Of a DNA stretch of 64,000 nt, positions 9,637 through 62,100 are shown piece by piece; positions within the stretch are counted from its first letter, which is position 1; each line of letters begins with the position of its first letter. Position numbers and translations under genes: made by a program. The notes below the pieces were generated by a model that did not search any database, had not been told where the DNA came from, and saw nothing but the letters and a program-made list of their open reading frames with translations. This DNA is from Lingula anatina. Taxonomy: Eukaryota; Animalia; Brachiopoda. The DNA lies in NCBI GenBank assembly GCA_051362555.1, contig CM120645.1, forward strand, positions 16,430,001-16,494,000, written 5' to 3'.

Positions 9637-9831
9637 ATGTCTGGCCAAGATACCCCCGAAATTACCTTAGCTGAAATAGATGCTATACCTGATTTTAAAA
9701 AAGCCAGAGAAATGCTACGAAAGTTAGGGTTGGACCTCGTTGGTGTGAAAAACAAGGACGACGCCGTCCTAAAATTGAGGAAACACCTGAGGGATAAGTA
9801 TGGTGAAGGTGTGGCTGAGGACCCACTGAAT
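9637..9831 (+). CDS. Gene A coding exon 1: N-terminal basic helical (SAP/HeH-like) module
   Basis: MSGQDTPEITLAEID...EDPLN followed by a gtaagt donor; aligns without gaps to gene B exon 1. Confidence 0.85.
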
Positions 9832-12800
9832 GTAAGTTTAAAATGCTGTAGTGCACAATTCCTTATGTCTGTACTCACTTCGCCTTTGTACATAAATAAG
9901 GTCTACAACTCAACATACCGGTGTATACCTTTAGTTTTTAATTCACTACAATATCAAAATAAGACAACAAACACAGTGGGTTTTAAGAGGTCGTTTGCAG
10001 CCGAAATATTTCTGAAAAAAAATGGACATACATCCAACAACTAACTAGAAGTTTAATTTTGTACATGGTTGCCCTTTTGTTTCATTTCAGGCTGCTGAAC
10101 TAATGGTAGATGCCTTGCAGGAAGATGAAGAGACAAGACAACAGCTTCGCAAATTTTACGAAGCCACGATTAAGTATATTTCTGATTTACCAGAAAGAAG
10201 ACGCAATGACCTTAATCAAAACATTCCGCGAGTGGAAAAAAGATTATGTGAAAGCATTGAAAAACTCTCTAAAAGCGAAAGCGGAATTTTAGTAGCAGGT
10301 AATTCTGAATATGTTGGACACCTTAACTTTCTCTCTGTTTTTATTTTTATTTTAAATAATGCTTTTGTCTTATCTTAGTGGTTGATTAGCAGCACCGTCT
10401 TCTCCCACTAACATAATTTAATGTCCTAGCTGTACGATATACACATTTCCAGACTGTAGGTTTTAAGTAACCTATCACGAAAAAGATTAAATTTGTCAAC
10501 AGTATATCTTCTAATTAACTTCACGTGAATTGCTTAGAAGGTAAGTTAAAACCTGGCCGCTCATTTTGCTTCATTCAAAAATTATATAATAAGTATTAAT
10601 ACCTTTACATAAAATTCGTAGTTATTGTACATTAACTGATTGACATTGTGGATAGGATTAGGGTTATATATATTTTCGGTAAAAAATTAAACAATGCCTT
10701 TTGGTAGTTCTCTTAGTTGTACTACTTGAAACTATATGCTAGTATTAGGGAGGTTTTTTTCACAAAAAATTGACTCTGTATGCATCTTTAAAGGAATACT
10801 TCACCTATCTCAAAATGAATCAATGTTATATTTATGTCTAAATATCCTCCAAACTTATGTTTTTTTTTCGTACATTTGTCTCGACATTTTGAGGTCCCCT
10901 TTTAATACTTGTGCAATTTTGTTCATATATAATTAAGGTGAGACTGGTGCCGGCAAGAGTTGTTTGTTAAACCTACTCCTCGGGGAAGATCTTCTTCCAA
11001 CTGATTTCTTCAGTTGTACCGCCGTGCTGTGTGAATTAAGGTACGGCGACCGTAGGAAAGCTATTGCACATTTCTGGGACACCAGTTTACAACCTGTTAC
11101 CTTGGACCTGGAAGTGCCAGATCCTCTTAAGGTTTTGAAGCCTTACATATTCCAGGAAGAAGGACGAGGGAAGAAGGAATTTCCATACAACAGAGTCCAG
11201 TTATTTTGGCCTATCCCTCTGTTACAGGTAACAAAAGCTACACGATGACAAATTTTGGGAGAGCTTGAACCATTATTATATGGCATTTCTATTCCTTAAA
11301 TAATAACCTACTGTTTAATTAGTTCCTTCAAAAGTATGAATTGTGCCCACATATCTCTGAACATAAAGATTTCGTGACAAGATGTACGTCACATAAAATG
11401 TTTTTCTTCTTAATCAGTTTATGAAACAGGACAAATTCCATTGAAATTTAGCATGCATTAGAAAAGGGCCATCAGTTAAATGATATTGCAACGGCTAAAG
11501 AAGTTTACAATTTATTTACATAATGTATGATATTTTTGATATTAAAGAAATTTACTTACAGGGAGGTGTCTACATCATGGACAGCCCGGGTATAGGAGAG
11601 AATGAAATGATGACAAAGCTTACAAAGAGTTATTTGGCCAAGGCATTTTCCTTCATCTACGTCATCAACAGCATGGTGGCCGGAGGAGTGCAAGAAGATA
11701 GGGTAAAACGAATAGCAACTTAGCGACTTTTACCTTTTTAACTCAGACACTCTTCGTTAATGAATATAATTTAGATCAGTATCGAGCTGGGGTTGGGACT
11801 TAATGTCCCTCATGGGTTGAAGATGTTAAACTAAGAAGTAACTGATATAAGCGGTTTAGATGAATAAGGTTCTTTCGCCATTATTTTTTCTTTTTAAGAG
11901 ATGAGTATGGTTAAGCAGCTCCAGATCAGCCAAAGGATTCGACCAGTTTGCAGCAAATTTAATTTCCGCAAACATAAAATCTTTGAAACTTTTCTCATAT
12001 CTTTGCTTAACTGCCTTTGATGATTGAATAGATATATATAACAACTGCTTTGAATTGGGCAATAAACGGATTTCCCTGGGATAAATGCTAAATTTCCCAA
12101 ACTAATGGTAAATGAATCCATGCAGACATTTAAAGTCCATTCATTGTTTTTCCTAAATAAAATGTATAATAATTTGTTAAGATTACTTACACATTAAATC
12201 CTTGAGAGGAATGGCAATCTATAAAGGTACGCGTGGTCTGATGACAACAACAGATTTTAGAATTATTGTGATAACCACTTTCTTGTGGTAAAAGGAATTT
12301 ATGATATTTTTCTGAGTAGTTAACAATGTATGTATTGTGAAATATAAATCTCATACGATCAGCTGTAATCCTTTCGAGGCGAGAGTACTCGGTAAGTGGT
12401 TTCGGTTTTTATGATTTGGCAGGACAAGCTGACAGCAAACCAAACATTTAGCTGATTTCAGAAGTGAAGTTAGTGAGTAGATTAGAACCGAAGAGTTGTT
12501 CTTTTTTGTAGCTCCAAGGTCTACTTAGTGACGTAGTGAAGGGTAAATTCGAGACAGAAAACAAAAACAGTGGCACAGAAAAACTTGCTTCTGGAGTTCA
12601 TCTGTTCAATCCTTCCACGGCCATCTTTGTACTCAACAAATGGGACCAGGTGCCAGAAAAGGATAAGACAGGCGTTTTAAACGACACGCTTCGCAAGCTG
12701 CAAAAAATCTGTGACGGCTTTACTGCAAACCAGCTATTCCCTATGTCTGTGACAAAGGTGAGCGCACATAGTAAACCTTATTTACATTTAATTACTGGCC

Positions 12801-15800
12801 GTTCTGTACCTAGTAAATCCCAATGGATCAGAGGGTCAGTTTGCAGCAGGCTTCTTTTTGTGGCTTAGATCAAGAAGTACCCCTAAAGTATTTTGATCCA
12901 ACAGCTAGAGGAAGAACAGCCGCTAAAAATGCATGTCTGGTTGTCCGATAAAGCGAGATGTCTCTTTCTTTGTGTAAGGACACTTCATATTAGATGACAA
13001 TGTTTCGAGAGATTGGCTGAAGACTGACATGAGGGGGTAACTGTTGCCCATCGGGTTAGTTCTGTCCACATTTTGGTCTTCACAGAGGTCATCTATAGTA
13101 GGGTAGCGTTCCCCAGAGAAAGAGAAATTGAAGTCTCTAGATGTAAGTCTTAGCACCAGAAATGGTGTCACATGGTAGAGCCCATTATGGTCGGTGTTTT
13201 ATTTGACAACGTGACAATGCTCAACCTCATCGTGCTCTCAGAAAACAATTCTTCAAATACTAGGAAATTGAGAGAGCGCTGAAGTTAGTTGTTATATTGA
13301 GGAATGACGCCAGCAGTCTGGAGCTTTCGAACGTTTATTCACCGACTTACTTTTTCACAGAATCTACAAGTATTTATACATACCTAGGGATGTTATGTGA
13401 CCGTGGTGATATGATGATCACTGAAGCCTGTCCATTTAGACAAGCTTCAGTGAAGATCGAGGGCAACCTCGAGCCGCTACCCAAAAATATCTCGCTTCAC
13501 TCGACATTTCTGCGTAGCGTCTCTCGGAAAACTCGGATTTAACCTCGATGTAGTCTAGAATTTCACGACTACATCTTGGTTAAATCAGTCGAGGTCTCTT
13601 AAATGCTGGAAGTCAAAGAGAGATTGATCGTGAGACCTTCTTGGCATCAAGAGAATAGTGACGTTGCTAGTGTTATATATCTACCAGTAGACAAATGTAA
13701 AATCTCTCACTCTTAAAAAATAAACATTTCACGTTTAACAATTATTAATTATAATTTTATAACAATAATTCATATCATATGGATATGGTTTGAAAACGGG
13801 AATTAGTTTACATTTAAGCCACACGTGCGTACACATTTTTGTAAATCTATGACTTTTTAACGAGGGCTGTGTTATTTACCTTTTGTTTTTAAGCTGTTCA
13901 TTCTTCCTCTTTATCAGATATATCGGTAAAAATCAAATATTTTCCCCCTTTGAACTTGTATAACATGTAGCATGCTCCATGCTCTGAAACCAGCACATGT
14001 ATATTCCGAAACCGCCTCGTAGTAAAACATGTCACCAAAACGTAGAAATATTACTCCTGTGGCCTTGAAATAAACATCCTGTAGTGCCAGGGGCAGGTAG
14101 AACATTTTGACTATATTCCGTAACCGCCTCGTCGTCAGAAATAACAATAAAAACTATAATTATTACTCCCGTGAACTTGAAATAAACATCCGTTTGATTT
14201 TGACTATATTCGGTAACCGCCTCGTCGTCAGAAATAACAATAAAAACTAGAATTATTACTCCCGTGAAATGTAATACACATCCGTTTGATTTTGACTATA
14301 TTCCGAAACTGCCTCGTTGTCAGAAATATCACCAAGAAGTAAATTTCTTTCTCCTTTGCACTTGTGAAAAATTAGTTTGACTTTATTCCGGTCCGACGCT
14401 CCTTGTTTATAAGAAATGTCACTTAAAAGTAGAGGTTTTGTCGTGGGACCTTTTTCTGCAGCAGGTCCAGCTAGGTGTGGCTCAGCTGAGACGCGCATGG
14501 TCAGTGTCGACGATTGATTAAATACTTTTCACGCCAGTTGAACGTTCATGACAAGCATTTAGCAAAAATTGACCACATTGGTCAGTCATTACGTAAGAAT
14601 TTGGCGGGAGGTGACCAGAGCACGTGGACGAGTTTATTTCATATAACATCTCTAGAGCGTGATATAGGGTCACTTTATTCGGTTTTAGGGGTGTTTTAGG
14701 ATGAAATGACTGTATTTGTTCTCGGTATGTATGTCAAATAATACACTGTCACCCTCTCGCGATATATGCCATGAACACCTCTCGCTGACGCTCGAGGTGT
14801 TATGGCATATATCGCTCGGGTGACAGTGTATTATCTCACACATAAACTATTTTCCCAAAGAATTTCCCATTCTCATATTACATAACTCTATTCAATATTT
14901 CCTAATTTAGTAATTTAAATTATACTTGTTTATGATTTAGAATATTTAAAATATTTTCCTAATTACTCATCTTGGATCCTGTCCAACTCGAGTATGCATG
15001 AGTTTTACGTGCAAATCAATAGAAAAATTAACCAATCAGATCCAGCTATATCTAACTCTGAAACGTTCCACCCTTTCTTGTTTCGAGAAAAGTCTCTACA
15101 CTCGTTGACACTTGAAGACATTTACTTTGCACTCAAAAACTTCCTACACATTTAATTCTGTTTTAATTGTTTTGTAATTGTCGAAAGTGTATGTCATTTG
15201 CTTTACAACATACACCCCTTTTTCAAAAGAATTCGTCCTCGAATTCTAAAACTTTACAACATGCGCTCCTTTTTCCATTTTTTTGTAAAGCAAAAACTAA
15301 ATAATATCAAATTTGTAAATTAACAAAACTAATAATGCTATCGTGATGTAGTAAGAGATCCCCTACAAAAATCTATGCCGCATGCTTTAGTGCTCAATAG
15401 GACAGCGTGCCACTGAACGTATAGTAAGAGCAGAACAAAGTCCTTTCCTAGTAATTTTTAGAATAAGTCGTCGAAATCGAGTATACGTCATTCCCCGATC
15501 AACATTCATCAATAATTCATGATAACGTTTAACAGGAATATCTGAACGTCGCAGTAATAGTACAGTAACTAAAACTAACTTAGTAACACTCTATGCATAA
15601 TAGAAATCTTGAATAATACATTTACCAAAATCTAATGGTATTTGATGCAACATGTATACCATGTAATCTTCAGATATCATCAAATAATGAGCACAACTCC
15701 ATAAAGTCCAACTAGGTAATCAAACCGTCCACAAAAATACAAACAAAATTCATTCATGTGTCAAATCAGATGAAAACTTAATCTGAAAATTCGGTTCTCT

Positions 15801-18800
15801 TTGTTGTTTGTATAATTCATTTATATATATACAGAATGTTCACGGAAGTTCTTAAACGACAAGGTTACAGTTCTGTCATCAATGTAAATGTAATGCACAA
15901 GTTCGTCAGGTCCTGCAAAATCAAAAATAATGATAATATTCCTTAAACACCCCATTTCTACCATAAAGTCATTCAAATGTAATAAAAAAATTATTTTTTT
16001 CTATATAATTAACTTACGCATAAAATTATAAACACATTCAACATGAAAACAAAAATATAACCTGAAGGACGATAAATTAATACTTTTTTAGGAAAATGCA
16101 ATTGGATATAGTTTATATTGTCATGTACACATGTTAATATGCGCCCAAGAGCACAGACACTTTTTGTTTGTTTTCTCATGCGGATATTTAAATCTGTTGC
16201 TCACTTATTATGGGTCTGATACAGTTTCTATTTTATTGGTTTTCATTTTAAATATAGTATGAATTTGCTAGGTGAGACAATAGGGTTAGCTACTCCCTGT
16301 CCAATGAACAGCATTCACCACAACGATGCGACAAGCGCATCGTTCATGATGAAATGCATTTTCATCTTCATATTTGTCCACACTGTAGCTCTCCTCTGTG
16401 ATGTCTATAAGAGAAACACTTGTTCGTATCAAATCCAATCCACGAATTTTATGAAATCATTCTGACAAATAATTAAGTCGCAAAATGTGAGAATCTTCCC
16501 TAATGCATTTCATCAGTTTCATGTAATCATTATTTTAAAAATATTAAATACACTGTCCATATCACAAAAGATCATCTGGTCAAATATCGATAACTAATAA
16601 TAATGATCATGGTTAAAACACAATAAAATTAATATTATTATATATCATAGTACATAGTGATTTAAAAAAAACATAATATCTGTCAGGACTTAAGTGTCAT
16701 GTTAATTCCGTGCATCTCGCACACTCTCAGTAATAATAATTATAATACACAGATCAGTTCCTTAGATCATTAAAGGTACAATGAGAAAAACTCAATCATA
16801 CAGTCATTAAAATGTTGTAATAGTACACACACTTCTTATACCAAAAGTTGGCTCGCAAAGATTAATCCACTTAGTTAATTCTAGACACATGTAGAAAGTC
16901 AAGTCAAATTCAACTTGGATAAAAATTAATCTGCATAATTGTGATCAAATGGTTCAAACTGAATATAGAAAAGTGCATTTACATTGTTAATACGCAAAAA
17001 TGCATAATATTCGCTCTTGAGTAATTTTCTGGGTTTAAAAGCTGCAAAAAGTGACAATGGGATAACTCTTTCCAAAACAATGTTTTTGTTTATTATGGTG
17101 TTTATAATTATGAAACCATGCCAATGTTTAGAGTAGTCTGCAGGCACAGAGACTGAAATGAATTGTCAAAATGAGAACAATTATTACTTCACTTTTTAAA
17201 AAGAATGAATCTTTGGTTCTAAGTTCGGCTTATTAATTGATTTTGTTGCGAAATTTTATATTCACTACGGTATAGTAAGTACTATATCGTTTACGCATAC
17301 TTCTTTTAGTAAAGCCATTACTTGTGCCAATTACCTGACCTTGATACACAGATGAAATGTCATCACGAACAATAAGTTCTGTATCCCGAATAAAAGTTTG
17401 AGGTGAATCATCTGTAGGAAATATTTCGTCTGCTGGAATAGCATCTGCCATATAAGTATATGTATTATCTTAATTGTCTCTTTTTTATAATCTCAAATGA
17501 TCACTTATATCTTTGGCAAGAAAAATTGATGAAAAGAAATTGATGAAAATGCTGAAGAAGAGTCGATTCCGAATTTAAAGGTTCCCTAAATAAATAAATG
17601 TTGAAAATATGCATGGTAAACAGAAATAATGCAACAAACCAAATTTAATGGAATGTAGCTGTACGTGCTATCTTAGTGTTGTTATGACAACTTGCCACAT
17701 GGGTTGGGAGGTAAAAAAAAAACATCTAAGTTCAAAATGCAATAACAAATAAAAAATTTGAATGACACATTAATGACATCTACTTAAAGAGGTTGTTGTT
17801 CTATGGCATTTCAGGGGTAATGTCAGTTATGTTAACTTAAAGTAACTGACTTGTCAAAACATCTCGTCTGTATTTTGCCAGTTTATTATGTGCCTTCCAT
17901 TTTGATGTGGCGTTATATATTTCCTTGTGATAACTTGTATTACATCGTTTGGATGTAACCTTTACTCGTATCAAGAAGTGATAAAGAGAAGGAGTAGAAA
18001 CAAGGGGTTTCCTTTCATCCTATTCTCGTAACGGGCTTAATCCTCATAATTACCCAGCTTGTGGTCTTAGGGAGAGCTTGTGCCTAATACATATTCAAAA
18101 GACCGTCCACGTGGGTTGCTTCAGCCAATTGGGATAAAGTCTCGCGGAGTCTCTAATAATCTCACATAGAAAACATGGTGGGATTACAGAAAGGTGTAGA
18201 GATATATTTCCAGCCTGTACGCAACCATTTTGGGAAATAAACCTCAAATCATGTAAGATACACCTCCGTTTGATCTAGAGCCGATCAGTTACACAAAAAT
18301 TAGTTTCACATCAAGAATGTATGAGAACAATTTCACAAACCCACCTTCAACGCTAAAATTTGCACCTGTAGAAGCGTCATTATTATTTTTAATTCTTTTG
18401 TCGTATAAAGGAAATTTACCTTACAGCCGTGTGCACAAAACAGTAGTACTTGCAATTTCTGTATGCTAGTCTCGTTTCTTTCTTTTTTTGGCACATTATT
18501 GCTTATATACCAGGTAGAGAAAAGCTTGCACAGGAAAATTGGGGAAATGAAAATAAGTTATTGCACTTCGTATGATTCTAAATAAAATTTCATTAATACA
18601 TATTTTTGTTTATATCTTCGTCTATTACATGAGGCCAACTTTTAGTAAACTGATAGTTTAAATTCATTAGAATAAAAAATGAAAGAGATATTATTATCGA
18701 TTGATATTGCTTTATTTTAACATTTGAGCAAATTGTATAACATCTAAAACAAAGTACCATCTATGAAAATATGTCAATATTGTTACACCCAACAGTGATT

Positions 18801-21800
18801 AAAGCAATGCAAAAATACATGAATGTATGTGGCAAAAATGGTTAGTTTTTATTTTGATGTGGTGATTATTTTATTTTATACTTCTGACAGTTGGCCAATG
18901 AACACTAAATTCTCTTTTAAAACTTGGACCACTCTTCAATTTTAGCCAAAAATTTTACAAATTTACCTGCGGTCCAGTATCACTTCATATTTGCATCTGA
19001 ATTAATTTATCTTTAAAGGAGAATAGACCCATAAAAATCCATTTCTCGAATTTTGAATATTCAGCACTCAATCTATACACTACAGGTATGTTTTAATCGA
19101 TCCTCACCATTAAAAATTTATAAAAACAATCTATTATTAGAAAAAAGCGTTTTAGTAAACCTCACCTCAATATACATAAATGAAGCAACAGATCTGGGTC
19201 ACGTGGTACTGTGACGACAATGAGGATAAAGAACTATGAGACTTAACTGAGCTGCATGGTGCACACAGACAATAGTTTAAGAAATTTGTGTTAAACGGAG
19301 TTGAGCAATTTTCTTTATGCCTCAGTGTGTTGCCGTGGGATTCACCAAAATTGCAGCCCTCCTTGACAATCTTTCTTTGTCGGTGACGGTCTTCCGTGAC
19401 TTATTAACTTCGGTGACAATAGTTGCGAGCTTGCGATCTCGGTCACCTCATGTGTTTTAGATCATACCAAAAGCTGATAGTCTTTTAGATAAACTGTCAT
19501 CAGTTGGCAAGCTTACTAATTGCTGATGCATTTAAATGCATTGTAGTTGACCAAGAGCTCGTAAACAATAAAACCTGTTAATTATGCACTGCTGCAATTC
19601 CCAAGCCAGCTAGGTAATAACAGGTATCAAACTCGTCTTGGTGGGCTTTCATATTTTACAACATATCTCATTTATTTCATGGGGTTATTTTATTGATATT
19701 TTTAAGTGACGTTAAATATCAATATTTAAACAATTAAGATAAAACACGGTCGCGAACATTAATAACAGATATGGCTCTCAGGGTATCTTGAAGCATGCTT
19801 ATGCCCAGGCATTACTTCCTTGGAAGAAAACGTGTTGAGGAAAAACAGGAAAAAGAGCGTTATATTAAAGAAAAATGGGAACTCATGTAATGAAATGGTT
19901 CGTAATCCTAATACGTTTATTCTTTAAGGATTTGTTTTTGAAGGTTATTTCTTCTGAAATATTAAATAATTTAAAAGGTTTATCATTTTATAACTTGAAA
20001 CGCAAGTTCTGCGTCTGTACGCAAAACTTTTTGCAAATTTGTAAGCTTTGTCAAACCCAAAAACGTGTAGCAGATCAAGGTAAAAGAGCATTGTCTGCTA
20101 CTGGTAGTTTACTAAATGTGCAGTTTTACGTACGTTAGTATATTTCAAATTATGCATGGAGATTTAACCTGATAAGGGATATAAGAAAGCCACAAACGGA
20201 TTTTTTAAAAAGAATGTTGGGTGTAAAAAAAGAGCCTTACTGATAACTTAGTTCATTGTATATAACTTAGTATATTATGAAAAGCGGGAGATACCCAATT
20301 CTTTTAAGTATGAAGCTACTATTTTTTTAATATATTGATTTAAATCCCCTCTTCGAAAAATTTTATTATAAAACCGTGCTATAAAGATCTACTCAAGAAA
20401 AAAGTTTGCTTGGCTTAAATTGAGTACGGAATGAACTGGAGACCCTTGGCTTGTCATTAAGTTTTCACGAAAATTTGTCAGATAACTTTATACTGTCCTT
20501 GAAAGAGTAAAGATTGAAAGAAAATTTTAGACAAATAGGCAAACTTTGACGGGGGAAATATCCACAAAGAGTAAAGGGCTATTGCGCCAACATCTTGTTG
20601 AATTTTTTTATACTGCAATTCTATTTAAATAAGCTAAGAAACTAACTGCCACATTTAGACTTTCATCACATAACAGGGGCATAACCAGACCTGCAAAAGC
20701 TGTACGCACAGATTAAAAAAATTACAAGCACGTACAGCAAAATGTAGACTAACGCAAAACATGAAGGACAGCGTAATCACAGCAAATGTACCTCATATAG
20801 TAGCTTAATTTCCATTTATAATAAAATCATCATTTTTAAAAAAATACATATTTGAGTGATATTTGATATCTGTCTATATCCATGGACAGAGTGGAATCAA
20901 AGTAGACACCCAGGTTTTTCACGTATGGTAATGGGTTCACAACACTGATGCCTACTGTAATTCAAGTTGTAGATTCTATACGTCTTGGAATGTTTCTAGA
21001 ATATTCAGAAAATTTTTTGTGCCACCTTTGATAGTGTTTCTTTTCTTTTAACAATTCATTATGTTTATATCAGGCTCAAAGTGCACTGAAACAGGGCTGT
21101 GCAACACCCGAGTTCTCCAAATTTCTTGTTGGACTGAAGAATCTTTTTCCTAAGACCCTTAAATCAAATCAGGAGAGTAAATACAGGTAACGAAATGTAC
21201 ATATTAGGCTGTTTCCTTTATAATGGTCACCATAAAATATGTCATTCAGTGAACTGTTTATATAAGATGAGCATGTATGAACTCTGAAAATTTTATATTA
21301 TTACTTAATAATGATAACCTTTTAACCACAGAAAATATAATTTTCTTTTTTTCATACACAATTTAGATTTTTGGTCCACATTCTGCGAAGATCTGCGTTT
21401 CATCTAAAGTCAGCTTTAAACATCTTTGAAAGATCTGAGGAAGAGAGTAGTAAAAAAGCCACTGAAATCAAGCGACAGATTGGAAACATAAAGAACAATT
21501 ATGAACAGATTCGTGTTAACTTGCAAGGAGTTTTAAAAATAAAGGCTGAACAAGCGGAACGGCAAATCAAAGATTATCTGAAAAAGAATAACCAGCGTGT
21601 CCTTAAATGGAAAGACGGCGATTGTCCAAAGCCAACAGACCATTGGGATGACCTTTACACACAAGCTAGAACCCTAATCCTCGGGAGAATCCGTGAAATT
21701 CTTGAGGAATGGAACGCCAACACGGAGTTTTTCACAAATGCTCAGAAGGAGCTTATAGGAAAGTTTCGCGAAGAGTTCAACATCATGGAGAACCAAGTTG

Positions 21801-24800
21801 CTCTTTTGGAAGGTCAGTTAACCAGCAAAGATATGCTTGTAGTCGAAGATGCAAACCCCACAGGCTTAAGATCCGTGGAGGACACTTCTACTTTCACCAC
21901 CACTGCTAAAGTCATGATTGGCGTCACTTCTCCAGTATGGATTCCAATAGGCCTTGTAGCTGCTCTTTTCGTTGTACCTGTTGCCCTTGGGGTGGCACTC
22001 AAAGAGCGTCTCAACGAGAAGAAACAAATTAAAGAGTATACAAAACACAAAGCGGCAGTCATGGAAACTATTGCAGAAAAAGTGCTCGAACATTTTATGT
22101 CCGAAGAAAACCTGTCGAAAGAGGTGATGCGGTACTTGGACTCTGCGGTTGCCACACTGAAAGACCTACTCAGTGCTATTCCAAAACTCCTAGATGATGA
22201 CCAGAAGCTCATAGAAGGGTTGCTAAGTGAACGTCAGAGAGCAGACTCAGAGTTGCAACTGTATCACAAAAATCTCCAGCAGAACGATGCCTTAGAGGGA
22301 GGCCTAGGGATGTTGTACGTGACAAAAATCCGGGAAGACATCAACGCAAATACCGAAATATATTGGGACAAGCCTGCTTTTGCTTCTGGCACGTTTAGTG
22401 AAGTTTATACCGTGAAGCTTCTATCAAGAAACAACATGGAAGCAGCGGCAAAGGTGATGAAGCAATTTGCCACAGCAGAGAACGTGGGCGAGGCTATATT
22501 GGAGGAGGAAAGTTTAAGGTGAGATGAACTAAGATTTTGCAGACCTAAGATTTGATCATTTTATCAGTGGCGAAAAATGCTCTTTAATGAGGTTATTTGG
22601 TGTATTTTTAATATGTATGTCTTTTAATGCGGAAGGGAAAATAATTTTGCTACATTTGATACGTAGATTGGCATGATCAGTTTGCCTATTTTGTTGATAC
22701 AGGAGACTTAATAGAACCCCAAACATCATCAAGTTCATAGGAACCAGCGCCATCATAGAGCCAGATGGTAACAGGCGCCTTGTCATTCTAATGGAGTATT
22801 GCCCCACAACCCTTGCAAATCGTATGTTAAATGCCGATGCGACAAGTCCCAAAGGACGACAAGAGATCATAAACCCTGGTTTGAAGCAACCGTTAGATCC
22901 TGGGCTCGTGCATTCTGTCGCTTACTTTGGTAGAGAAATATGCATTGGATTAAAATACATGCATGCTAAAGGATACATTCACCGAGATCTAAAACCAGAA
23001 AACATACTGGTAAGTCTGGATTTTGATGGATGATTTATGTCTACTCTCTAAGATCTAGTGACTTAAATTTCATCTATTATAAATGAGTGGCATTTTATGA
23101 TGGTAGTATTGTACCACTAGCTTAGTCCCGACCAGTCTCGTCCGCCGTTTCCGCCGTATTCGCAGCCCTTTCACCACTTCTCCTCCTAGACTACAAAGGA
23201 CTGTGTACCCATTTACTGGATTTAGGTCACACATAATCTCATCTCCTCCCACGTAAATTTTGGGCTTTGTCAGTGCACTAGTGCAGGTGTGGTGCTCGTT
23301 GTAATGAGCCAGGCTTGTTATTAAATGTTAAATATCTCCCAATAAGAAGGAAGTGTGAGAAAATTCACTATAATAGTCTAACCAAAAATAATGTGGAGAG
23401 ATTCCAAATATATGTGTGCCCTTGGATTTGACCTCTGATATTTATTTCAAAGTCAAATGGGCTAAAATTTTCCAAAATGGAAATTTTTCTGCGAAAAAAA
23501 ATATTTGTTTGTGCCAATTTTCAGAAACCACCCAGACCTAAGCTCTCATATTACAGTGAAGGGTTACAGTTAGGGACATCTGGCATCTTCATCTTCGGGA
23601 GTTTGGGGTCAGTCATTTTCACGAGAGAAGTCGCCATTAGATGTTGAAACCGAAATTTCTCTCTTAATCTGGAATCGTTAATGCTAGAGGCCTCTTTTTT
23701 TGCATTTTGTAAAGCTTGTCAAGCGCATTATTGGAAGTGATGTCAGTTTTGTCATACGGTTTAAGCATTGTGCAATATCACAAAATACGACAAAATATTC
23801 AGTGGTGAAAATAAAATGTGAAATACACGTTCATGTATAGTTACTATTGAACTTGGATCGAAAGCCATGTACTGGTAATCTTTGTCCTTGAAATTGACCT
23901 TTGTCCTTGTTTTTATGATCAGCTGGACTGAATTTTCGACCGCAATAATTATGTATACACCAAACAGCCAGAGATACACTGGTAGGCACTATTGAACTTA
24001 AATAAGAACTCAAATTGACCATGAACCAAACTTAGCAAAAATTTTAGATCCTTCTGTATTTAAAATTGGTAGAGATACGCCCATACCTACTATTGAAATT
24101 GATTGGGAGGTCATATTATACGCGATATTCCTGTGACTTTGAATTTCACCTTTGACCTACTTTGCATCGTGAACTGCACTTTGCAAAATTAGAGATGTGC
24201 ACATTATTTCTACTGAACTTGGATAAAAATTAATATATTGGAAATCTGGAATTCTTTCAGTGCCTTTGAATTTGTACTTTGACCTACTTTTAACCAAAAA
24301 CCGCAACTTTAAAGATGCATACAAAGTCAATTTTTTGTCACAAAAACCAACCAAATGCCAGCATATAGTTTCAAGTAGTATAACTAAGAGAATTACCAAA
24401 ATACGAGGGTTGATTGATAAGTAGTGAGCCTCGTGTGGAAGGGGTTAAGCAGGGATATCCCTTTTCAGCCCTTCTATTCCCTGACTATTTAAAGGTGTGT
24501 AGCCGAAGTTTGGTGTCATTTGGTTAGTTTACGTCGACGAGGTAGCACTCTCAAATAAGCAAGGCAAGTGACTTTTGCAAAATGCCCCTGCTCACAAGTC
24601 TGTCATTGCCATGGCTGCAATCAACGAGTGTGGCTTTGAACTGATAGAACATCCACCTTATTCGCCTGATCTTGCTGCCTCTGACTATTATCTATATCCC
24701 AAATTGAAAAAAGGCTATTTCAGGAACTCACTTTGTGTCAGAAGATGACGTCATACGTGAAGTGGAGGGGTTTCTGAACGGCCAAGAGAAGGGCTTCTAT

Positions 24801-26699
24801 AAAAGTGGCATAGAGGCTCTCAAAACTAGCTGGCAAAAGTGTATAGATTCTCAAGGAGACTATGTTGAAAAATAAAGCAAAATACTTGTTAAATGTGTAC
24901 CCCTTCTATATGAGGCTCACTACTTATCAATCAACCCTCGTACATTGTTTAATTTTACCCGAAAATGATGTTTGAACAGATTTTTCTGCTGGCATTCTAA
25001 GCTGTATGTCAATGGGGCAGGAAAGTAGGTCACGAATGTAGGTTAAATTTACAACCATAAATTTAAAGAAAGGAGCAGTCTAAAGGTCTTTTATGGCTGA
25101 TCGAGTGATCTATTCAGTTTATCCCTTGGCATGTCGAATTTATTTGAGTCATATCAGAATCTAGTTGAAGTGGTTTACATGTGTTACTGGGAATCCACGC
25201 TCCACCGATGCTTGGTTCGTATGTACCTTTAAGAGCTAGATCTTATAACTACTATTGACCTTGGATTGGATTTCTTATATTCACAATCATACTTCAGCCT
25301 TAGCTTTGGCCTGTTTCTTTTCCCCATGTTAATATAAGTGTATTATAAATTGTAATTTTCCAGAAAAAATAAGAACTCTGGTTTATTGCATTTTGTAGAG
25401 CTTGTCGGGCACAACATTGGAGGTCGTGTCCCTTTTTTGTTTTCCATACAAATTAAAGTGCTAATTACATCTGGTGGTAATGCCGACGATAACGTCTCTC
25501 TGATCCTCTGATTAAATTTCTGTTTTGACACAATGCTTTGTATAATATGTTTTGCCATTAGGTAACTGCTAAACACGAAATTCGACTTGCTGATTTGGGA
25601 CTGACAAAACCGCAATGTGACATCACTGGTACACTATGTGGAACACTGGTTTACATGGCACCAGAAATTCTGAAGAAGGAAAAGGTCGGGGCACCAGCAG
25701 ACATGTACACGGTTGGGGTCATGCTTTGGGAAATGTGGTATGGGAAACGTGCCTACAATCTGTCTTGCTTTAGGGATTTTGAGGTGAGTTATACTTTATT
25801 AATTTATATTATTGCACAGAATGAGTAAATATTTAATTGGTGCAAACTGAATATGCCTCAGAAAATTTTTTGTCATAAGATTCATTTTACAACAGGGGAA
25901 ATGTAAGAATCGGTATCTACCGGAAATCACCTTTAGACATGTTAATAATAATGTTAATAACATATAGATAATATGTTGGGTAGAGATGGTATTGTCCGTA
26001 TTCTGAACTTCGTAGTAGACATTTCCATGAGTGAAAGTTTGCAGGATTATGCACGATTCAGGATTATTATTCTTCCTCTTTTCATTTATTTCATACGATT
26101 TTAATAAGATGTGAGCGATGAGAAATCGCAAGCTACGTTTTCAGGATTTTCATGCAGTTTCACAACTTTCACTCATTCATTTTAATATCTGGATTCACCC
26201 TTCCAAATCCCCCATAACACCAGTTTTAACCCAATATTGATTCACTTTTGAAATAATTTGTTTAAAATCAAATGAAAAATATTAAACGGGATTAAGAAAG
26301 CCATGATTGTAAACCACCCAGATTCAATACCCTCTGCCATGGCCACAGGTTGGTTTTTCACAAGATATTCACAGATATGCCTCTAGATAAATAGGTCATT
26401 TTGCTATCTCTTTTGGAACATTTCCCTATGATATCTGCCACCCTGGTAAAGGGTCATGATTAAACACGTTCCCATTGTGAATACTTCATACTGTTAGAAA
26501 AAAAGCTTTAACGTTTAATTTTCATTTTCAGCTTGACTGGACATCACATATTGTCCTTGAGGGTTTTACACCGCCGCCGCCCATGTGGTGCAAGAAGTTA
26601 GAAAAGCTGCTTTCCCCCACGCCATCCGAAAGACCAACCGCAAGCGAAATGGAGATATTCCTTAAAGAAGAAACCCGCAAAAAATCCCATCATAAGTAA
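9637..26699 (+). CDS. Gene A: dynamin-like (mitofusin/BDLP-type) GTPase + membrane hairpin + protein kinase fusion, DSTYK-related, 1013 aa, 10 coding exons
   Basis: Exons 9637-9831, 10091-10298, 10938-11227, 11562-11702, 12512-12757, 21074-21186, 21367-22518, 22703-23009, 25562-25783, 26532-26699. All introns are GT-AG with compatible phases, and the 3042 nt total is an open frame. Motifs: G1 AGETGAGKS, G2 SCTA, G3 DSPG, G4 NKWD; hydrophobic VMIGVTSPVWIPIGLVAALFVVPVALGVAL; kinase AAAK, HRDLKPEN, DLG, GTLVYMAPE, DMYTVG, ERPT. A splice acceptor at 9629-9630 just before the ATG implies an upstream UTR exon. Confidence 0.92.
10091..10298 (+). CDS. Gene A exon 2: pre-GTPase helices up to ILVAG
   Basis: tttcag acceptor, AAELMVD...ILVA, phase-1 gtaatt donor. 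Confidence 0.88.
10938..11227 (+). CDS. Gene A exon 3: P-loop GETGAGKS and G2
   Basis: Completes the Walker A motif across the splice junction; ends WPIPLLQ with a gtaaca donor. Confidence 0.92.
11562..11702 (+). CDS. Gene A exon 4: G3 DSPG
   Basis: GGVYIMDSPGIGE...GGVQEDR; boundaries match gene B exon 4. Confidence 0.92.
12512..12757 (+). CDS. Gene A exon 5: G4 NKWD
   Basis: tttgtag acceptor, LQGLL...AIFVLNKWD...MSVTK, gtgagc donor. Confidence 0.9.
14000..14340. repeat. Degenerate tandem repeat, about 93-bp unit
   Basis: tgactatattc...ccgcctcgtcgtcagaaata recurs at 14108, 14201 and 14293. Confidence 0.75.
14738..14834. repeat. Long imperfect palindrome, probably a transposon terminus
   Basis: ataatacactgtcaccc...gcgatatatgccat...atggcatatatcgc...gggtgacagtgtattat. 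Confidence 0.75.
15387..17451 (-). pseudogene. Decayed multi-exon gene of unknown family, antisense within gene A intron 5
   Basis: Phase-compatible exon chain 15912-15833, 15782-15626 (two TGA stops) and 15541-15387 with 50- and 84-bp GT-AG introns; further exon-like pieces at 17451-17340, 17152-16926 and about 16460-16290. Confidence 0.4.
21074..21186 (+). CDS. Gene A exon 6 (not in the ORF track)
   Basis: AQSALKQGCATPEFSKFLVGLKNLFPKTLKSNQESKY; aligns with gene B AWQHSQAG...EHVHR; phases 0 and 2 fit the neighbouring exons. Confidence 0.85.
21367..22518 (+). CDS. Gene A exon 7: helical stalk, membrane hairpin and kinase N-lobe
   Basis: 383-aa ORF with coiled-coil character, a hydrophobic segment at about 21911-22000, and ASGTFSEV and AAAK motifs. 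Confidence 0.93.
22703..23009 (+). CDS. Gene A exon 8: kinase hinge and catalytic loop
   Basis: NIIKFIG, ILMEYC, HRDLKPENIL, gtaagt donor. Confidence 0.93.
23105..24300 (+). mobile_element. Helentron/HINE-like non-autonomous repeat in gene A intron 8
   Basis: ttagtcccgacc...ttctcctcctagac head, then degenerate gacctttgacc-containing repeats; homologous to 45340-46560. Confidence 0.55.
24313..25228 (-). mobile_element. TTAA-flanked MITE (same family as 2538-2909) interrupted by a mariner
   Basis: ttaa|agatgcata ... tatgtacct|ttaa; the two halves are colinear with the reverse of 2538-2909. Confidence 0.75.
24404..24940 (+). mobile_element. Internally deleted mariner element
   Basis: Perfect 29-bp TIR cgagggttgattgataagtagtgagcctc with TA TSD; transposase remnant NAPAHKS...HPPYSPDLAASDYYLYPKLKK. 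Confidence 0.92.
25562..25783 (+). CDS. Gene A exon 9: DLG and activation segment
   Basis: IRLADLGLTKP...GTLVYMAPE...DMYTVGVMLWEM, gtgagt donor. Confidence 0.93.
26532..26699 (+). CDS. Gene A exon 10: kinase subdomain XI and stop
   Basis: ttttcag acceptor, LDWTSH...LLSPTPSERPTASEM...HHK then TAA. Confidence 0.85.
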   Translation, partial: LDWTSHIVLEGFTPPPPMWCKKLEKLLSPTPSERPTASEMEIFLKEETRKKSHHK

Positions 26700-55741: not shown

Positions 55742-56161
55742 TCACACAGCACTTTCTTTTCGGTTCAGTAAATCCTGTATTCCATGCATCCGATCTCTGC
55801 AGTCTTTTATGGCGATTTCCCCGGATAGACAAGCCCTCATGGTCTTCTCCCAATATGCCTCCAAGGTCGGGTCCATTTTACCAGTTTCAAACTCTGGGGG
55901 GAAGTTGCCCTGCCTAATGCCGGCAATGAAGTCTCCAACTACAAGAATTCTCTGGCTTTTGTACACATGTTCATTATGCCATATCTCCCACATCATGAGC
56001 CCAAGGGCGTAGATGTTGGCATCAGCATCGTAAGGTTTGGTGCCATCGAGGACGCTGTAGGGGAGATAAACCATAGATCCTATGGGGGAGTTGGGATCTG
56101 GGGGTGGCATCGTGACAGGCTTGCTAATGTTCACTAACTTCACGGTTTTATCCCGCCCAGC
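55742..56161 (-). CDS. Gene B exon 8: pseudokinase C-lobe and stop
   Basis: AGRDKTVKLVNISKP...GSMVYLPYS...DANIYALGLMMWEIW; equivalent to gene A exons 9 and 10 fused. Confidence 0.88.
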   Translation of the reverse strand, partial: AGRDKTVKLVNISKPVTMPPPDPNSPIGSMVYLPYSVLDGTKPYDADANIYALGLMMWEIWHNEHVYKSQRILVVGDFIAGIRQGNFPPEFETGKMDPTLEAYWEKTMRACLSGEIAIKDCRDRMHGIQDLLNRKESAV

Positions 56162-59100
56162 CTATAAAAAATATAAGGGATCGTTCAGAATGAACTTAGT
56201 CGCAACAGCTCACTTACTCCTCGGGGACCCTCGCTGAATGCAATCAGATTAACAGACTAACACGCCTCCTCTTGACGTTGAGTAAAATACGGAGAATGAG
56301 TACGCCAGTCACGTTAGAAAAAAAGAGGATTAAGCAAGTGCTACCATGAAGTTAATGTGCATGAACTATTGCGACCTAACTCCCCTAAGTGAACAGGTAT
56401 GTGTGTAAACAGGTATGTGTAAAATTTCTAGTTATTTCCTTTACATATTACTAGGCGATTCTCCATGCCACCATACAACTATATCTTTCTTTTGGAATAT
56501 CATTACACATTACACACGGTCAATTCCACCATGTGCACCAGATTCCAGGACAATCCCCCCCCCCCCCGATAATCCCCCCGCCCAGACAATACTCCCCGGA
56601 CACCCCCCCTCCCCCGAGTTGAGTACAAGTAGAGAAAGTATTATTAAATATTTAATCAAAGTATAACCAGGTAAAGGTGGGGTAAACATATGAACAGTTC
56701 AACAGGTAAACATTTTTTAATTCTTTTTCTTTTTGTACGGCGGGAAGTGAGTAGGTGGATAGTTGTCAATCAATTAAAAGTGACATATAATCAAATGGAT
56801 ACCTGTATGAGTGAGAGAATATGTTTACCCAACCTCTCCCTAGAGATGCACCCTGGTGCAAGGCTTACTTAATCAGGGGGACGGATATTTTAACAATTAA
56901 AAGTAACACTAAATTCATCTAAATGTTACCTGGATGTATGAGATCATTTGTTTACCCCACTTTACCTGGAGATATACTTTGATAAGATTTTTAATAAAAT
57001 TTTCTTTACTTCTATTTCTGAAATTTCCTGTACTTGTATTACTTGAAAATAATTTGTTTAATGAATTAAATATCTTCTATCTTTGAGATGCATTATCACA
57101 CTAAGAAATATCCATACAATAGATTAATAGATTTGAGCTTCATACTCTTTACTTTATATTTGAATATAATTATTTATTCTTCGGGGGGGGGGAAGTCCGG
57201 GGGGGGGGGGGGGAAGATTGTCCAGGGAGGAATTGTCAGGGGGGAAATGTCCGGAGGGGGGGTTGTCCTGATACCTGTACACCTTATCTTGTACAAGGTT
57301 GTGAGTTCGCGACTGTTTATTTGTTTCTTGTAATGCTCTTTGCGCTCTGTGTCAAAAAGCAACAAAATCAAACTAAATCACAAGAGAAAGGAGAATTCAA
57401 GATAAAATTTGATATTTCTTTTTTATAAATACTCACGGTGATCATAACTGTATCCATAGACAAATCCAAACAGACGAAGCCGTTTTGTGCAGGTAGGCCA
57501 AGGCAGCCGCCAGTTGGATTAGACAATCTATCGGTTCTTTGAGTAAACATTGGACCAGCTGACCCGGGACGACTTTTCGACTACCCTTGCCACTGCTGAG
57601 GACCCTCAAACTGGTCAAACGCGGGGTCAAGATAAGAGATGGCAGTTCAGTTGTGGGGTCCAAATAAGTACCCAATATGGTAGGAATGAATCTCCTCTTT
57701 TGTTGCTTCATTTTTCTGGAAAAAATAATTTGTCCTTGTGTTATGTCCTATTTAATGTATGGTGCCAGCCATAAATCTCTACGATTAAGAAAGAAAAAAC
57801 TAAACTGAAGTAAACATAGAGAATGTTTAAGACAAGAGTTAACTTCTTATTTCTACACACCTCATTTCAATGATATCTTCACGTACTTGCTTTTCACATG
57901 TAGCCCCTTTATATCGTTTTACAGATATTTTGAGGGATTGACCCTTTGGAGATTTTAAGATGGCAGAGAAAACTTCAGTCCAGTTTCCTTTATATGACGT
58001 TGGCCCTTTAACAAGTCTGATGTCTGCTTCCACATCTGTCTCGTTATAATCGTACGATAAAAGATGTGTAATAGCAAAATCTTCCAGCGCACGGTTAACT
58101 CTGGTAAACTTCTTGACGACAGGGTCATAGGTGTCGATGAGCTGCTCTTTAGACCGTTGATCTTCTTTAATGGACTGCATGTACTTTCTTGTTGATGATA
58201 TAAGCTGTGGAATGGACTCGCGCACCATCTGTAGATGATCCCTGGCCTCTTGGAGTTGAGCATCGACGTAGGCCTTTGTAACATCACGCTTAGCCATTAT
58301 TTTCAAAGCCTCGGATGACCTATCTCGAAGAAATTCACATTTCTTCTGGTCATATTGTTTTAAGATTTGTTTCTCTTTCCTCTTCCTCACATGTTTTTTT
58401 ACGTCAACAAAAAGAAATGCCGGTGACGCAAGAAGCATACCCAACGCACCAATGGGTAAAATGATAGGTGAAAATAAACCGAGTGCAATTTTTTCACCTA
58501 GGTTAAAGTCTACAATTGACATTTTGTTCACCTCATTGTCCATTAGGTCTTGTAATTCCATGTAGGCCGCCAAATCTCTACTTTCACTGGAATCTGTTTC
58601 CGAGGACCGTTCCAGCATGTTTTCAATCATGCGCAGCTCAGATTCAATTAACTGGAATTCTCTAGTGAATTTTTTGAACAAGTCTTTCTTCAGAGTTTCA
58701 AAATGTTTTTCGTCCGTTTCCCAAGACCTGATGGCATCAATCATCTTTTACAGATGGCATCTTCTATTCTTCCTTCTAAATAGTTCCAACTAAACCCATA
58801 AGGAGCTTCGGCATTGGTCCAAGAGGTAACTTGAGCACAGACAGGATCGCTGCTAAGATATTTAGATAAAGAATCAGTAATGGTTTCACATTCTTTATAA
58901 AGATGTTCGTCTAGTTTTTTCAAAATTTCTTCCGACTTTTTCTCAAGTCTGTCCAGCCGTTTCTTCTGGGAGTTGTGCTGAGCCTCAAGTTCATCCCTTG
59001 TCAAATTGGCAGAATGAAGATACTGCTGAGCACAATCTATAGTGCGCTCTACCATATGTTTGCCCCATCTAAAATAAACATAGTATAAATAACCTCTATT

Positions 59101-62100
59101 ATGAAAAATATTTTAAACAGCCTCAGGAACTGGCTCAAAATCAGCGCGCTATATAAAAATGTAAACGCACATTACAAATAGATATTGTTTATTAACATAA
59201 TGTTAAATTGGGTGTCGTATTATTACTCAGGAACACGGAATGAGTTTACTTTAATAAAGAAATAAATAAACTGAAACACACCGGTGCACATGCTCCGTCC
59301 TTCTTTGCAAACTCACTGGAATCAGGCCCTTGATGCCTCTGACCAGCCGCCTGTAGTCGTGAGTCATGTACCCAGCCTGACTGTGCTGCCACGCCATTTT
59401 AGCAGAAAGGGTAAATATCTGCTTTGATGAATCCATGGGCCGGTTCCAGCCCTCACTTACTGCCAAATGTACGTTCTCTAAAGCCTTTTTCCTTGCGTCC
59501 TCTGGCACCAGATCCCAGCGGTTGCAGACAAAAATAGCACAGCCAGGGTCAAATATTGGCTCTCCAGCAGTATCCTTCATATCTTGAAGTTGCCGGAGCA
59601 ATTTTTGGATCTACGGAAAGAACATCAGATAAATAATAAGATAAAGATGCTATCATATGGTCTTCGCACACTTCAAATCATTTCATTTATTCTCTCATCT
59701 TCAAACGAGAAAGAAAAGGCTATCACACATATTAGATTAAATGGAACGTGTTGGAAGTGAGCTGAAAGTAATTTTTGAAAACAAATATTATTTTTAAATT
59801 ATTAAAATGTTTAAGTCAATTTAGCGAAAATATTATTCCTGACTGTTGGTGGCCGTTTAGGATTTTAAACAGTAAAAAATGAAATCAGAAAAACTTCTAG
59901 TGAACACGTGAGCTGGGATAGTGGTATAAGGCTTGTTAATGAGTATTTTATATACACTTTGACCAAAAGCCTGATCAGGCCTGGCTCAGCTCCTCTCGTT
60001 TAGTCGGCCAGTCCTCTTTCCTTCTTATTGCACAGCCTAGAGCATCTCAAAAATGCTCTATGGGATTCGAACAAGGAGAAAAGGCAGGCTTGTCTATTTG
60101 CCCGGTAGGCCATTGAAGAATTGTTGCGTTCTTTGATCCCGATGAAGCTTGTTGAAATAGAAAAAAGACCAAATTGGCTTGGTTTGATGATGGTTCGACC
60201 TTCATTATGACTACTACCGTTGGCAAGTTCTAACCCAAAAAGTATTTAGCAAACCTACTAGTATCTCAAAATTGACATGGAAGAAAGATTCTTATATCAG
60301 TACTATGAAAAAACAACTACATTTTATCGGAAAACCAAACGTGCACCTAGTAATGCACGTGAAGGCAATGAAGTTGATGGGTCCATTGTAATGTGGGTTC
60401 TTCTGTTAGGTGAAGAAAATTTTCTCTGAGTCCTCTGAGAAAAAGCTGACAACTGTTCTTTGACGACCCATCTGGTAGAGCATACGATCCTTCCAGGTTG
60501 TAGTCTTAGGTGGGAAACCACTGCCGATGACTGATCACACATATTTCTTTGACCTACCGCTGGATGATATTACGATTTATCTCAGGAAGCTACAGTATCT
60601 ACTTTTCACACCTCAAGCCTCAAACAAATCAAGGACTATATCCAATGAAGACGTGTTAAAACAAACCAACCGTAGAAGCGTTAGTAAAGTCATCAAGAAA
60701 AAGAGATGGAAATGGATTGGCCAAGTTTCACCACAAAAGTAACCATGTACTGGACACCAGAGGGACACAGAAAAAGAGGCAGACCTAAGACCACACGGAG
60801 GCTGAAACAACTGAGGAAAACCCGGGGAATTATTCAACACCTAGCTCGTGACAGAGCGCAGTGGGAGATCTTTGTCGGTGCCCTAGACGCCCGACTGCGT
60901 GAAAGTATATAGTAGTAGTACCTATAACAGCACTAGACAAAACTGACATGCGACACCAACTCCGAGTGAAAAATGCACATGACCCATCAGTGTGATCAGA
61001 TATGTTACATAACCATAAGGTAATCAAATCTAATCAGCTCTTGTGTATTAAGAAGGTAATTATTACACTTATACCATTGTGATGATAGTTAAGCTATTTT
61101 CATATTTCTGACAATTATTACGGTGAACTTTGAAATTAAATCATCTCTTGTTTTCGAAATATTCCATTATTTTAACAAAGGAGTAAGAGGGCGAATATAT
61201 TTGTATGGTGACTGATGGTCACTTATATTAATTAAAGGAAGTTCATGTTCACCCCGCAAGGGCTCTTCGCAACTTTAAGTATGTTGATTTGAATATTTTT
61301 AAGCAATACAGACTCAAATGCTTTTAATGCAATTTTGTCTGGGGAAAACTGAGCAAGTATATTTCAAGCAATATTATTGGAGAATTGAGAAAAGCTTAGA
61401 ATACAATATCAGTGGGAAATATTATTGCATTTAACTTACCCTATCTTCTTGTACTCCGCCTGACTTATCAGTCATAATGACGTAAATGAAGGCAAAGACG
61501 TCATTGTTGGCAATGAAGTCAAGAACCACGTCATCCATGACACCACTCTCACCAATACCAGGGCTGTCGATGATATACACACCACTCTAAGGGCATAACA
61601 CAATTTTGTTTATGCATTTTGTGGATACTTAATATAAAGGCGTCATACCTTAGACAATTTTCTATGAAATTACATGTACATACCAGTTCCCAATTTAGTT
61701 TCATGTCACAATTTTACACGTACATAGAGGTATATCTTTAAGAAACACAATCTATACATCATTTTCCATAAACCCTGTCTTTATGAAATACGTCATTACC
61801 TTTAACAGTTCAAATGGCAAATAAACATCAACAGTGCACTTTTCCAGTTCATCCTCCCTCGCTGCACCTTTAGGAAATAGAACAGGCTCCAAAGACGAAC
61901 ACAAATCATCAGGCTTCTTTATGGGGACTTCCGACGACTTCTTGCTGCCGTCAGGTTGGTATGTCACTTTGAATACTCTAGGTTCTTCTCCATACTTTAT
62001 TCTTGTGATCGCTGCTGTGCAGCTTAAATGGGCTTCCGGTAGGATCTTTTTGCCAAGGAGAAGGTTCAAAAGCGTGCTCTTCCCCGAAGAAGTTTCGCCT

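Follow-up and report, generated by a model that had tools for sequence, protein, structure and literature searches.

A 64,000-nucleotide (nt) stretch of the Lingula anatina genome (GenBank assembly GCA_051362555.1, contig CM120645.1, positions 16,430,001 to 16,494,000; hereafter the window, numbered from its first letter) raises the question of whether an animal gene can encode a dynamin-class GTPase and a protein kinase in one polypeptide, and how such a gene would relate to the kinase DSTYK. An earlier note on this DNA had proposed that one gene of the window, gene A, fuses a mitofusin/BDLP-type GTPase to an intact kinase and represents a GTPase-active form of DSTYK. We found that gene A belongs to a family of its own and that the N-terminus of DSTYK is predicted to have the same fold class in a degenerate form. 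We regard as close to certain the gene structure, the motifs, the family, and the BDLP/mitofusin fold match of both the gene A protein and the DSTYK N-terminus. The gene A family is likely the sister of DSTYK.

Window translation and splice-site fixing gave a gene A product of 1013 amino acids (aa) from 10 exons, with zero internal stops and GT-AG borders at 9/9 introns (Table 1). The product is colinear end to end with that of L. anatina LOC106174710 (P0001; 860/1019 identical, 84%), which served as the gene A stand-in for structure models and searches. In the P0001 model (mean predicted local distance difference test, pLDDT, 78) a small helical domain (aa 1-60) is followed by neck helices (62-125), a G domain (126-390), a stalk (390-716) and a kinase (726-1005), and the helical bundles of neck and trunk are closed by a C-terminal helix, as in the BDLP/mitofusin class. 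The GTPase motifs G1 (aa 135-142, split by intron 2), G2 (T162), G3 (aa 238-241) and G4 (aa 320-323) and the kinase motifs all stand in the 1013-aa frame at the places where the earlier note had read them. Its description of the kinase as intact held for the catalytic residues (K760, E777, catalytic loop aa 875-882, DLG 895-897, APE 917-919) but not for the glycine-rich loop (aa 738-743), where a single Gly is kept. At the stalk tip lies a hydrophobic hairpin (aa 581-609, KD19 2.49). Gene A thus joins a BDLP-type GTPase and stalk to a C-terminal kinase, and its motifs predict both GTPase and kinase activity.

The GTPase is of the mitofusin/BDLP type, as the earlier note had held, and stands nearer to BDLP. 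A profile of 7 kinase-less members gave BDLP at E 8e-29, Campylobacter dynamin-like protein (DLP) at 1e-12 and MFN1 at 5e-12. The alignment with BDLP (Protein Data Bank, PDB, entry 2j68) is close over the G1-G3 region. In Foldseek the top matches of the P0001 model were BDLP (E 8e-19, template modelling score, TM, 0.35/0.47, root mean square deviation, rmsd, 12) and then IniA, and an Atlas structure match reached TM 0.71 to a BDLP cluster. Pfam assigned Dynamin_N to P0001 at E 1e-15; in gene A the Dynamin_N and Pkinase matches arise from single exons. The best sequence and structure matches, namely Nostoc BDLP (2j68/2j69), the Campylobacter DLP pair (5owv) and mycobacterial IniA (6j72), resemble gene A in G1-G4, in the neck and stalk fold and in the hydrophobic tip; unlike them, gene A is an intron-rich animal gene with an extra small N-terminal domain and a C-terminal kinase. 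MFN1, MFN2 and Fzo1 have the fold class and the type of G3 and G4 in common with gene A, with a weaker sequence match than BDLP. A mitofusin proper was rejected, with BDLP far above MFN1 and no Fzo_mitofusin among the 22 Pfam matches at E up to 1; to our knowledge, mitofusins carry no kinase. A ROCO identity was rejected as well: neither Roc nor COR was among these 22 matches and the fold is that of BDLP. The comparison with ROCO proteins (LRRK1/2) extends to the presence of a GTPase and a tyrosine kinase-like (TKL-like) kinase in one chain, possibly with coupling driven by dimerisation, whereas the gene A GTPase is dynamin-class with a stalk, distinct from ROCO as the note had inferred. As a side observation, the GTPase-stalk also matches LeoBC weakly (E 2e-8), and the PADLOC mad6 profile scores 158-186 bits on the kinases of P0001, P0060 and P0110 against 123-135 for Pfam Pkinase, which may reflect a broad kinase profile.

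We then considered how widely this architecture occurs. A GTPase-stalk search returned 59 matches, 50 of them with both Dynamin_N and kinase, from Lingula, amphioxus, corals and bivalves, and mostly named "uncharacterized". The stalk exon alone retrieved 197 clusters at 50% identity; 144 new ones were listed, among which 21 were full GTPase-to-kinase proteins and 38 resembled a single exon ending at the alphaC intron. Names were obtained for 19 of 20 further clusters looked up, all from animals, adding hemichordates, nemerteans, gastropods and more bivalves. In prokaryote genomes 0 of 600 pattern matches were confirmed, the patterns being family-specific, so that bacterial kin are still possible; with the same kind of patterns 0 of 319 were confirmed in viral contigs, and none of the 389 plasmid records with a match covers both halves. 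Within a 59-row family set made up of gene A and P0001-P0058, 54 rows have G1, G3 and G4 intact. A kinase is present in 52 rows, of which 31, spread over corals, molluscs and amphioxus, keep K, D, N and D and 21 are pseudokinases; 7 rows lack a kinase C-lobe. The hydrophobic hairpin (KD19 at least 1.8) was detected in 47/58 family rows. Apparently, this family in corals, molluscs, nemerteans, hemichordates and amphioxus is an uncharacterised branch of the animal dynamin superfamily. Its architecture is already visible in database annotation, where some members are automatically named DSTYK-like. One member, P0002 (L. anatina LOC106164177), looks chimeric, with aa 401-565 79% identical to the gene A ortholog and aa 566-704 76% identical to the gene B ortholog, reflecting either recombination between paralogs or a mis-joined gene model.

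Is the N-terminus of DSTYK also a dynamin? Our DSTYK set comprised 55 loci from a short-motif scan, seven with long DSTYK frames, and the DSTYK features that the earlier note had named (the DLG segment, the N-terminal stretch and the degenerate P-loop) are real in these loci. One long-frame DSTYK used as query returned 66 proteins, many of them named DSTYK, from cnidarians to lungfish; the lungfish protein provides the vertebrate link (39% over 98% of the DSTYK query region). With kinases removed, HHalign of 58 family against 51 DSTYK rows gave a probability of 96.8% (E 2.6e-10, 412 columns), with 0.6% for the reversed control and no more than 2.0% for 15 block shuffles; the signal is located in the neck and G domain. 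The DSTYK N-terminus against gene A alone reached 92.4%, and in a comparison with full-length DSTYK HHalign reported the kinase alone. Against the PDB, a kinase-free DSTYK profile (11 sequences) found BDLP first (E 2.7e-5) and IniA second (0.003). For a hydrozoan-like DSTYK, the modelled N-terminus (625 aa, pLDDT 81) matched BDLP (E 1.2e-11), Campylobacter DLP, IniA and MFN2 in Foldseek. VIA-align over 48,161 chains gave MFN2 (Z 18.5, 364 aligned, rmsd 8.2), then Fzo1, EHD4, SynDLP and BDLP (14.1), with the first non-dynamin at 10.6. An Atlas query with Dynamin_N clusters skipped placed three rows named DSTYK at the top (0.93-0.94). The dynamin-like fold sought by profile-profile and Foldseek comparison is predicted for the DSTYK N-terminus. 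In the motifs, the G1 Lys is kept in 49/51 rows, the Gly before it in 1/51 and the G3 Asp in 0/51, and we predict that the DSTYK N-terminus is a dynamin-class pseudo-GTPase that has lost its catalytic residues. A single DSTYK row of the 51 (L008:1545-4406, P0062) has Gly-Lys-Ser at the P-loop; its G3 Asp is absent.

The likeness of gene A to DSTYK (also known as Dusty, RIPK5 and SgK496) covers the domain order, the homologous N-terminus, a TKL-like kinase with DLG and two intron positions. The DSTYK intron set comprised 23/55 loci, chosen for multiple exons and with some near-duplicates; its commonest introns are in phase 2 after alphaC (13/23) and in phase 0 after the catalytic loop (16/23). 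Introns 7 and 8 of gene A, at the ends of exons 7 and 8, are these two introns in both position and phase. The DxG-to-APE length is also equal in the family and DSTYK, and on the DSTYK profile 10/51 family kinases outscore every PDB kinase. Kinase trees were built with viral and bacterial outgroups only, the viral ones drawn from contigs, in which 65 of 122 loci were long enough and 46 were left once duplicates had been removed; some of them are presumably TKL-like. Family and DSTYK were joined in a quick tree of 84 rows (SH-like approximate likelihood ratio test 88) and in a careful tree of 48 rows (95/82), from which pseudokinases were excluded and 22 outgroup, 9 DSTYK and 5 family rows were dropped. 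A quick, unrooted G-domain tree (41 rows, three groups, without mitofusin) has no bearing on sisterhood. Because of the shared domain order, the introns and both kinase trees, common origin is favoured, and we hold it to be quite probable that family and DSTYK share an origin, in which case GTP catalysis and the hairpin would have disappeared from DSTYK, with the scaffold and an active kinase retained.

Several results weigh against this relationship. Those from the stalks, the bacterial proteins and the approximately unbiased (AU) tests would fit convergence, in which a dynamin-like GTPase was joined to a TKL-like kinase twice, once in the family and once in DSTYK. The stalks alone fail to align in HHalign (1.0% and 0.2%), the single lungfish DSTYK N-terminus reaches 1.5% with the family profile, and no hydrophobic hairpin was found in 51 DSTYK rows (maximum 1.47). 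On the DSTYK N-terminal profile bacterial proteins are roughly level with the family, cyanobacterial DLPs scoring 34.7 and 33.4 (family best 40.4, median 23.8), and an Atlas query with the N-terminus alone led to bacterial clusters, with no DSTYK shown. For the kinase, other placements survive the AU tests, which do not reject DSTYK with 5 (p 0.467) or 14 (p 0.164) viral kinases; the grouping with DSTYK that the earlier note had expected was recovered at a borderline level. The family kinase profile scores DSTYK at 147 bits at most and B-Raf at 155, the gene A kinase scores no more than 64 bits against DSTYK while the best PDB kinase to P0001 reaches 68, and on the DSTYK profile a kinase from a giant virus (112.6) comes close to the best family member (116). 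The alphaC intron may occur in Raf kinases too. Neither half alone, then, singles out the other group as sister. Set against convergence are the equal domain order and spacing, the coincidence of two introns, the equal DxG-APE length and the joining of the groups in both kinase trees, and we consider it improbable. In DSTYK, which is conserved, G1 and G3 are degenerate and the hydrophobic hairpin is absent, whereas the family is fast-evolving, expanded, GTPase-intact and often pseudokinase.

A role for this architecture is suggested by what is reported on DSTYK. DSTYK resides on late endosomes and lysosomes and promotes their fusion, and its N-terminal part is drawn as non-catalytic regions (PMC6981171). 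In dstyk mutants docked carriers fail to fuse, vacuole/lysosome fusion needs kinase activity and no effector was found (PMC7012607). STING is phosphorylated by DSTYK at late endosomes (PMC11933320). Disorders linked to DSTYK include kidney malformation and spastic paraplegia. Its kinase placement is treated as unsettled (PMC9573974), and PMC10503413 makes no mention of dynamin or GTPase and includes DSTYK only as a kinase-domain row in the supplement. A literature search short of most subscription papers and structure-classification databases returned no paper on the family or on a dynamin fold in DSTYK. A mitofusin-type fold in the DSTYK N-terminus would make the missing fusion mechanism directly testable through self-tethering, nucleotide binding and oligomerisation, and the gene A family provides natural GTPase-intact versions for comparison with DSTYK.

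The best explanation, which we find reasonably probable, is that the gene A protein is anchored in a membrane and serves as a tether, its kinase being clustered and switched on when GTP drives the heads to pair. Proteins of the BDLP/mitofusin type insert a hairpin into the membrane, pair their G domains in a GTP-driven manner and tether or remodel membranes. By analogy, the hairpin would anchor the gene A protein, and GTP would pair G domains head to head and bring about tethering or curvature. The kinase, attached to the final stalk helix as it runs back to the neck, would come to lie beside neighbouring kinases and be activated in trans. The chances that hairpin insertion, head-to-head pairing, tethering or remodelling and activation in trans all take place as described appear evenly balanced. 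Action at endolysosomal or vacuolar membranes, extrapolated from the location of DSTYK, would fall slightly short of that, and a role in defence or stress, suggested by the expansion and the pseudokinase paralogs only, is rather doubtful; some bacterial DLPs are antiviral (PMC11789081). Two points speak against a hairpin anchor, namely its absence from 11/58 family rows and the pLDDT below 50 of the hairpin region in the P0001 model. Subgroups that lack the hairpin with GTPase and kinase intact are P0042, P0043, P0046-P0048, P0051 and P0054 (amphioxus) and P0034 and P0050 (bivalves); DSTYK is likewise hairpin-less. More tentatively, DSTYK may combine a mitofusin-fold pseudo-GTPase with its kinase and act on endolysosomal membranes directly, tethering them or priming them for fusion. 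The gene A family might then retain the ancestral GTP-burning form. It would be a second animal GTPase-kinase fusion class beside ROCO, derived from a bacterial-type dynamin, whose kinase and pseudokinase paralogs multiplied in marine invertebrates and serve in membrane-sensing signalling or in defence.

Alternatively, the two halves could be uncoupled, the protein being a mitofusin-like membrane remodeller, possibly mitochondrial, whose kinase tunes its own assembly or is dispensable. The loss of catalytic residues in 21/52 kinases and of the kinase C-lobe in 7/59 rows, with the GTPase intact in 54/59, would agree with this. However, the 31/52 kinases that keep K, D, N and D span corals, molluscs and amphioxus, Fzo_mitofusin is missing from the Pfam matches as noted above, and DSTYK retained the kinase and lost the GTPase, with kinase activity needed for fusion (PMC7012607). 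We judge uncoupled halves slightly less probable still than convergence.

That gene A is simply the DSTYK ortholog of this animal is very unlikely, even though some family members bear the automatic name "DSTYK-like". The DSTYK clade (100/100) excludes gene A, whose G1 and G3 are intact and whose hairpin is present, in contrast to degenerate, hairpin-less DSTYK. Both types also occur together in Branchiostoma lanceolatum, Sinanodonta woodiana and the genus Acropora, and gene A is taken as a paralog of DSTYK because they coexist in the same species. The proposal of a GTPase-active DSTYK therefore stood for the dynamin class of the DSTYK N-terminus, in degenerate form, and gave way for gene A itself to a separate, expanded paralogous family. 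That a GTPase gene and an adjacent stalk-kinase gene were wrongly joined over the 8.3-kb intron 5 is the most remote alternative: the 15 RNA joints listed, of 26, include none over intron 5, but the break lies inside the G domain, both of its sides sit in one exon of the paralog gene B, which has no intron there, and the flanking residues occur in 57/60 aligned rows, with ortholog P0001 colinear. By these comparisons, the exons across intron 5 appear to form one gene, a well-supported reading that bears out the fusion described in the earlier note. Among four RNA runs, one (X7) covers gene A exons and the other 3 are nearly without exon cover; among the X7 joints listed, that over intron 1 has 8 reads and that over intron 7 has 6.

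Table 1. Positions of gene A exons, intron 5 and gene B in the window.
Feature	Position	Strand	Residues	Content
Exon 1	9637..9831	+	aa 1-65	Small helical N-terminal domain, unnamed (helices in P0001 model); RNA joint over intron 1
Exon 2	10091..10298	+	aa 66-135	Neck helices (P0001 model), start of G1
Exon 3	10938..11227	+	aa 135-231	P-loop G1 to 10960; G2 Thr162 at 11018-11020; Dynamin_N E 1.6e-8; aligns with BDLP 2j68
Exon 4	11562..11702	+	aa 232-278	G3 at 11580-11591
Exon 5	12512..12757	+	aa 279-360	G4 at 12635-12646
Intron 5	12758..21073	+		8316 nt, rich in repeats; no family-coding match within
Exon 6	21074..21186	+	aa 361-398	End of G domain
Exon 7	21367..22518	+	aa 398-782	Stalk helices with the hydrophobic hairpin (21914-22000); N-lobe of the kinase (K760, E777); RNA joint over intron 7
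Exon 8	22703..23009	+	aa 782-884	Catalytic loop 22980-23003; Pkinase E 1.1e-11
Exon 9	25562..25783	+	aa 885-958	DLG 25592-25600; APE 25658-25666; Pkinase E 1.8e-13
Exon 10	26532..26699	+	aa 959-1013	Stop
Gene B	55742..63666	-		Convergent paralog; GTPase-stalk-hairpin-pseudokinase, 8 exons; 73-98% by segment to P0045 (L. anatina LOC106174708)

The domain encoded by exon 1 matched no Pfam family at E <0.1; a similar spacing is found in many family members, and the domain is seemingly missing from DSTYK. Within intron 8, an element with 49-nt inverted ends (24397-24947), whose motif we take to be mariner-like, is skipped by many RNA reads from related repeat copies. The intron sites of gene B are those of gene A, except introns 5 and 9, and its pseudokinase assignment comes from P0045 motifs. 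Gene B carries two frameshifts in the assembly (near 58743 and 57484), which we read as either assembly error or a young pseudogene because both lie at short A runs. A 172-codon frame at 508-1023 (-) with a helix-hairpin-helix match (HHH_3, E 1e-7) is unrelated to gene A. Between genes A and B lie remnants of reverse transcriptase and endonuclease of the long interspersed nuclear element (LINE) type, at 51085-52810 (-) and 43906-44160 (+).

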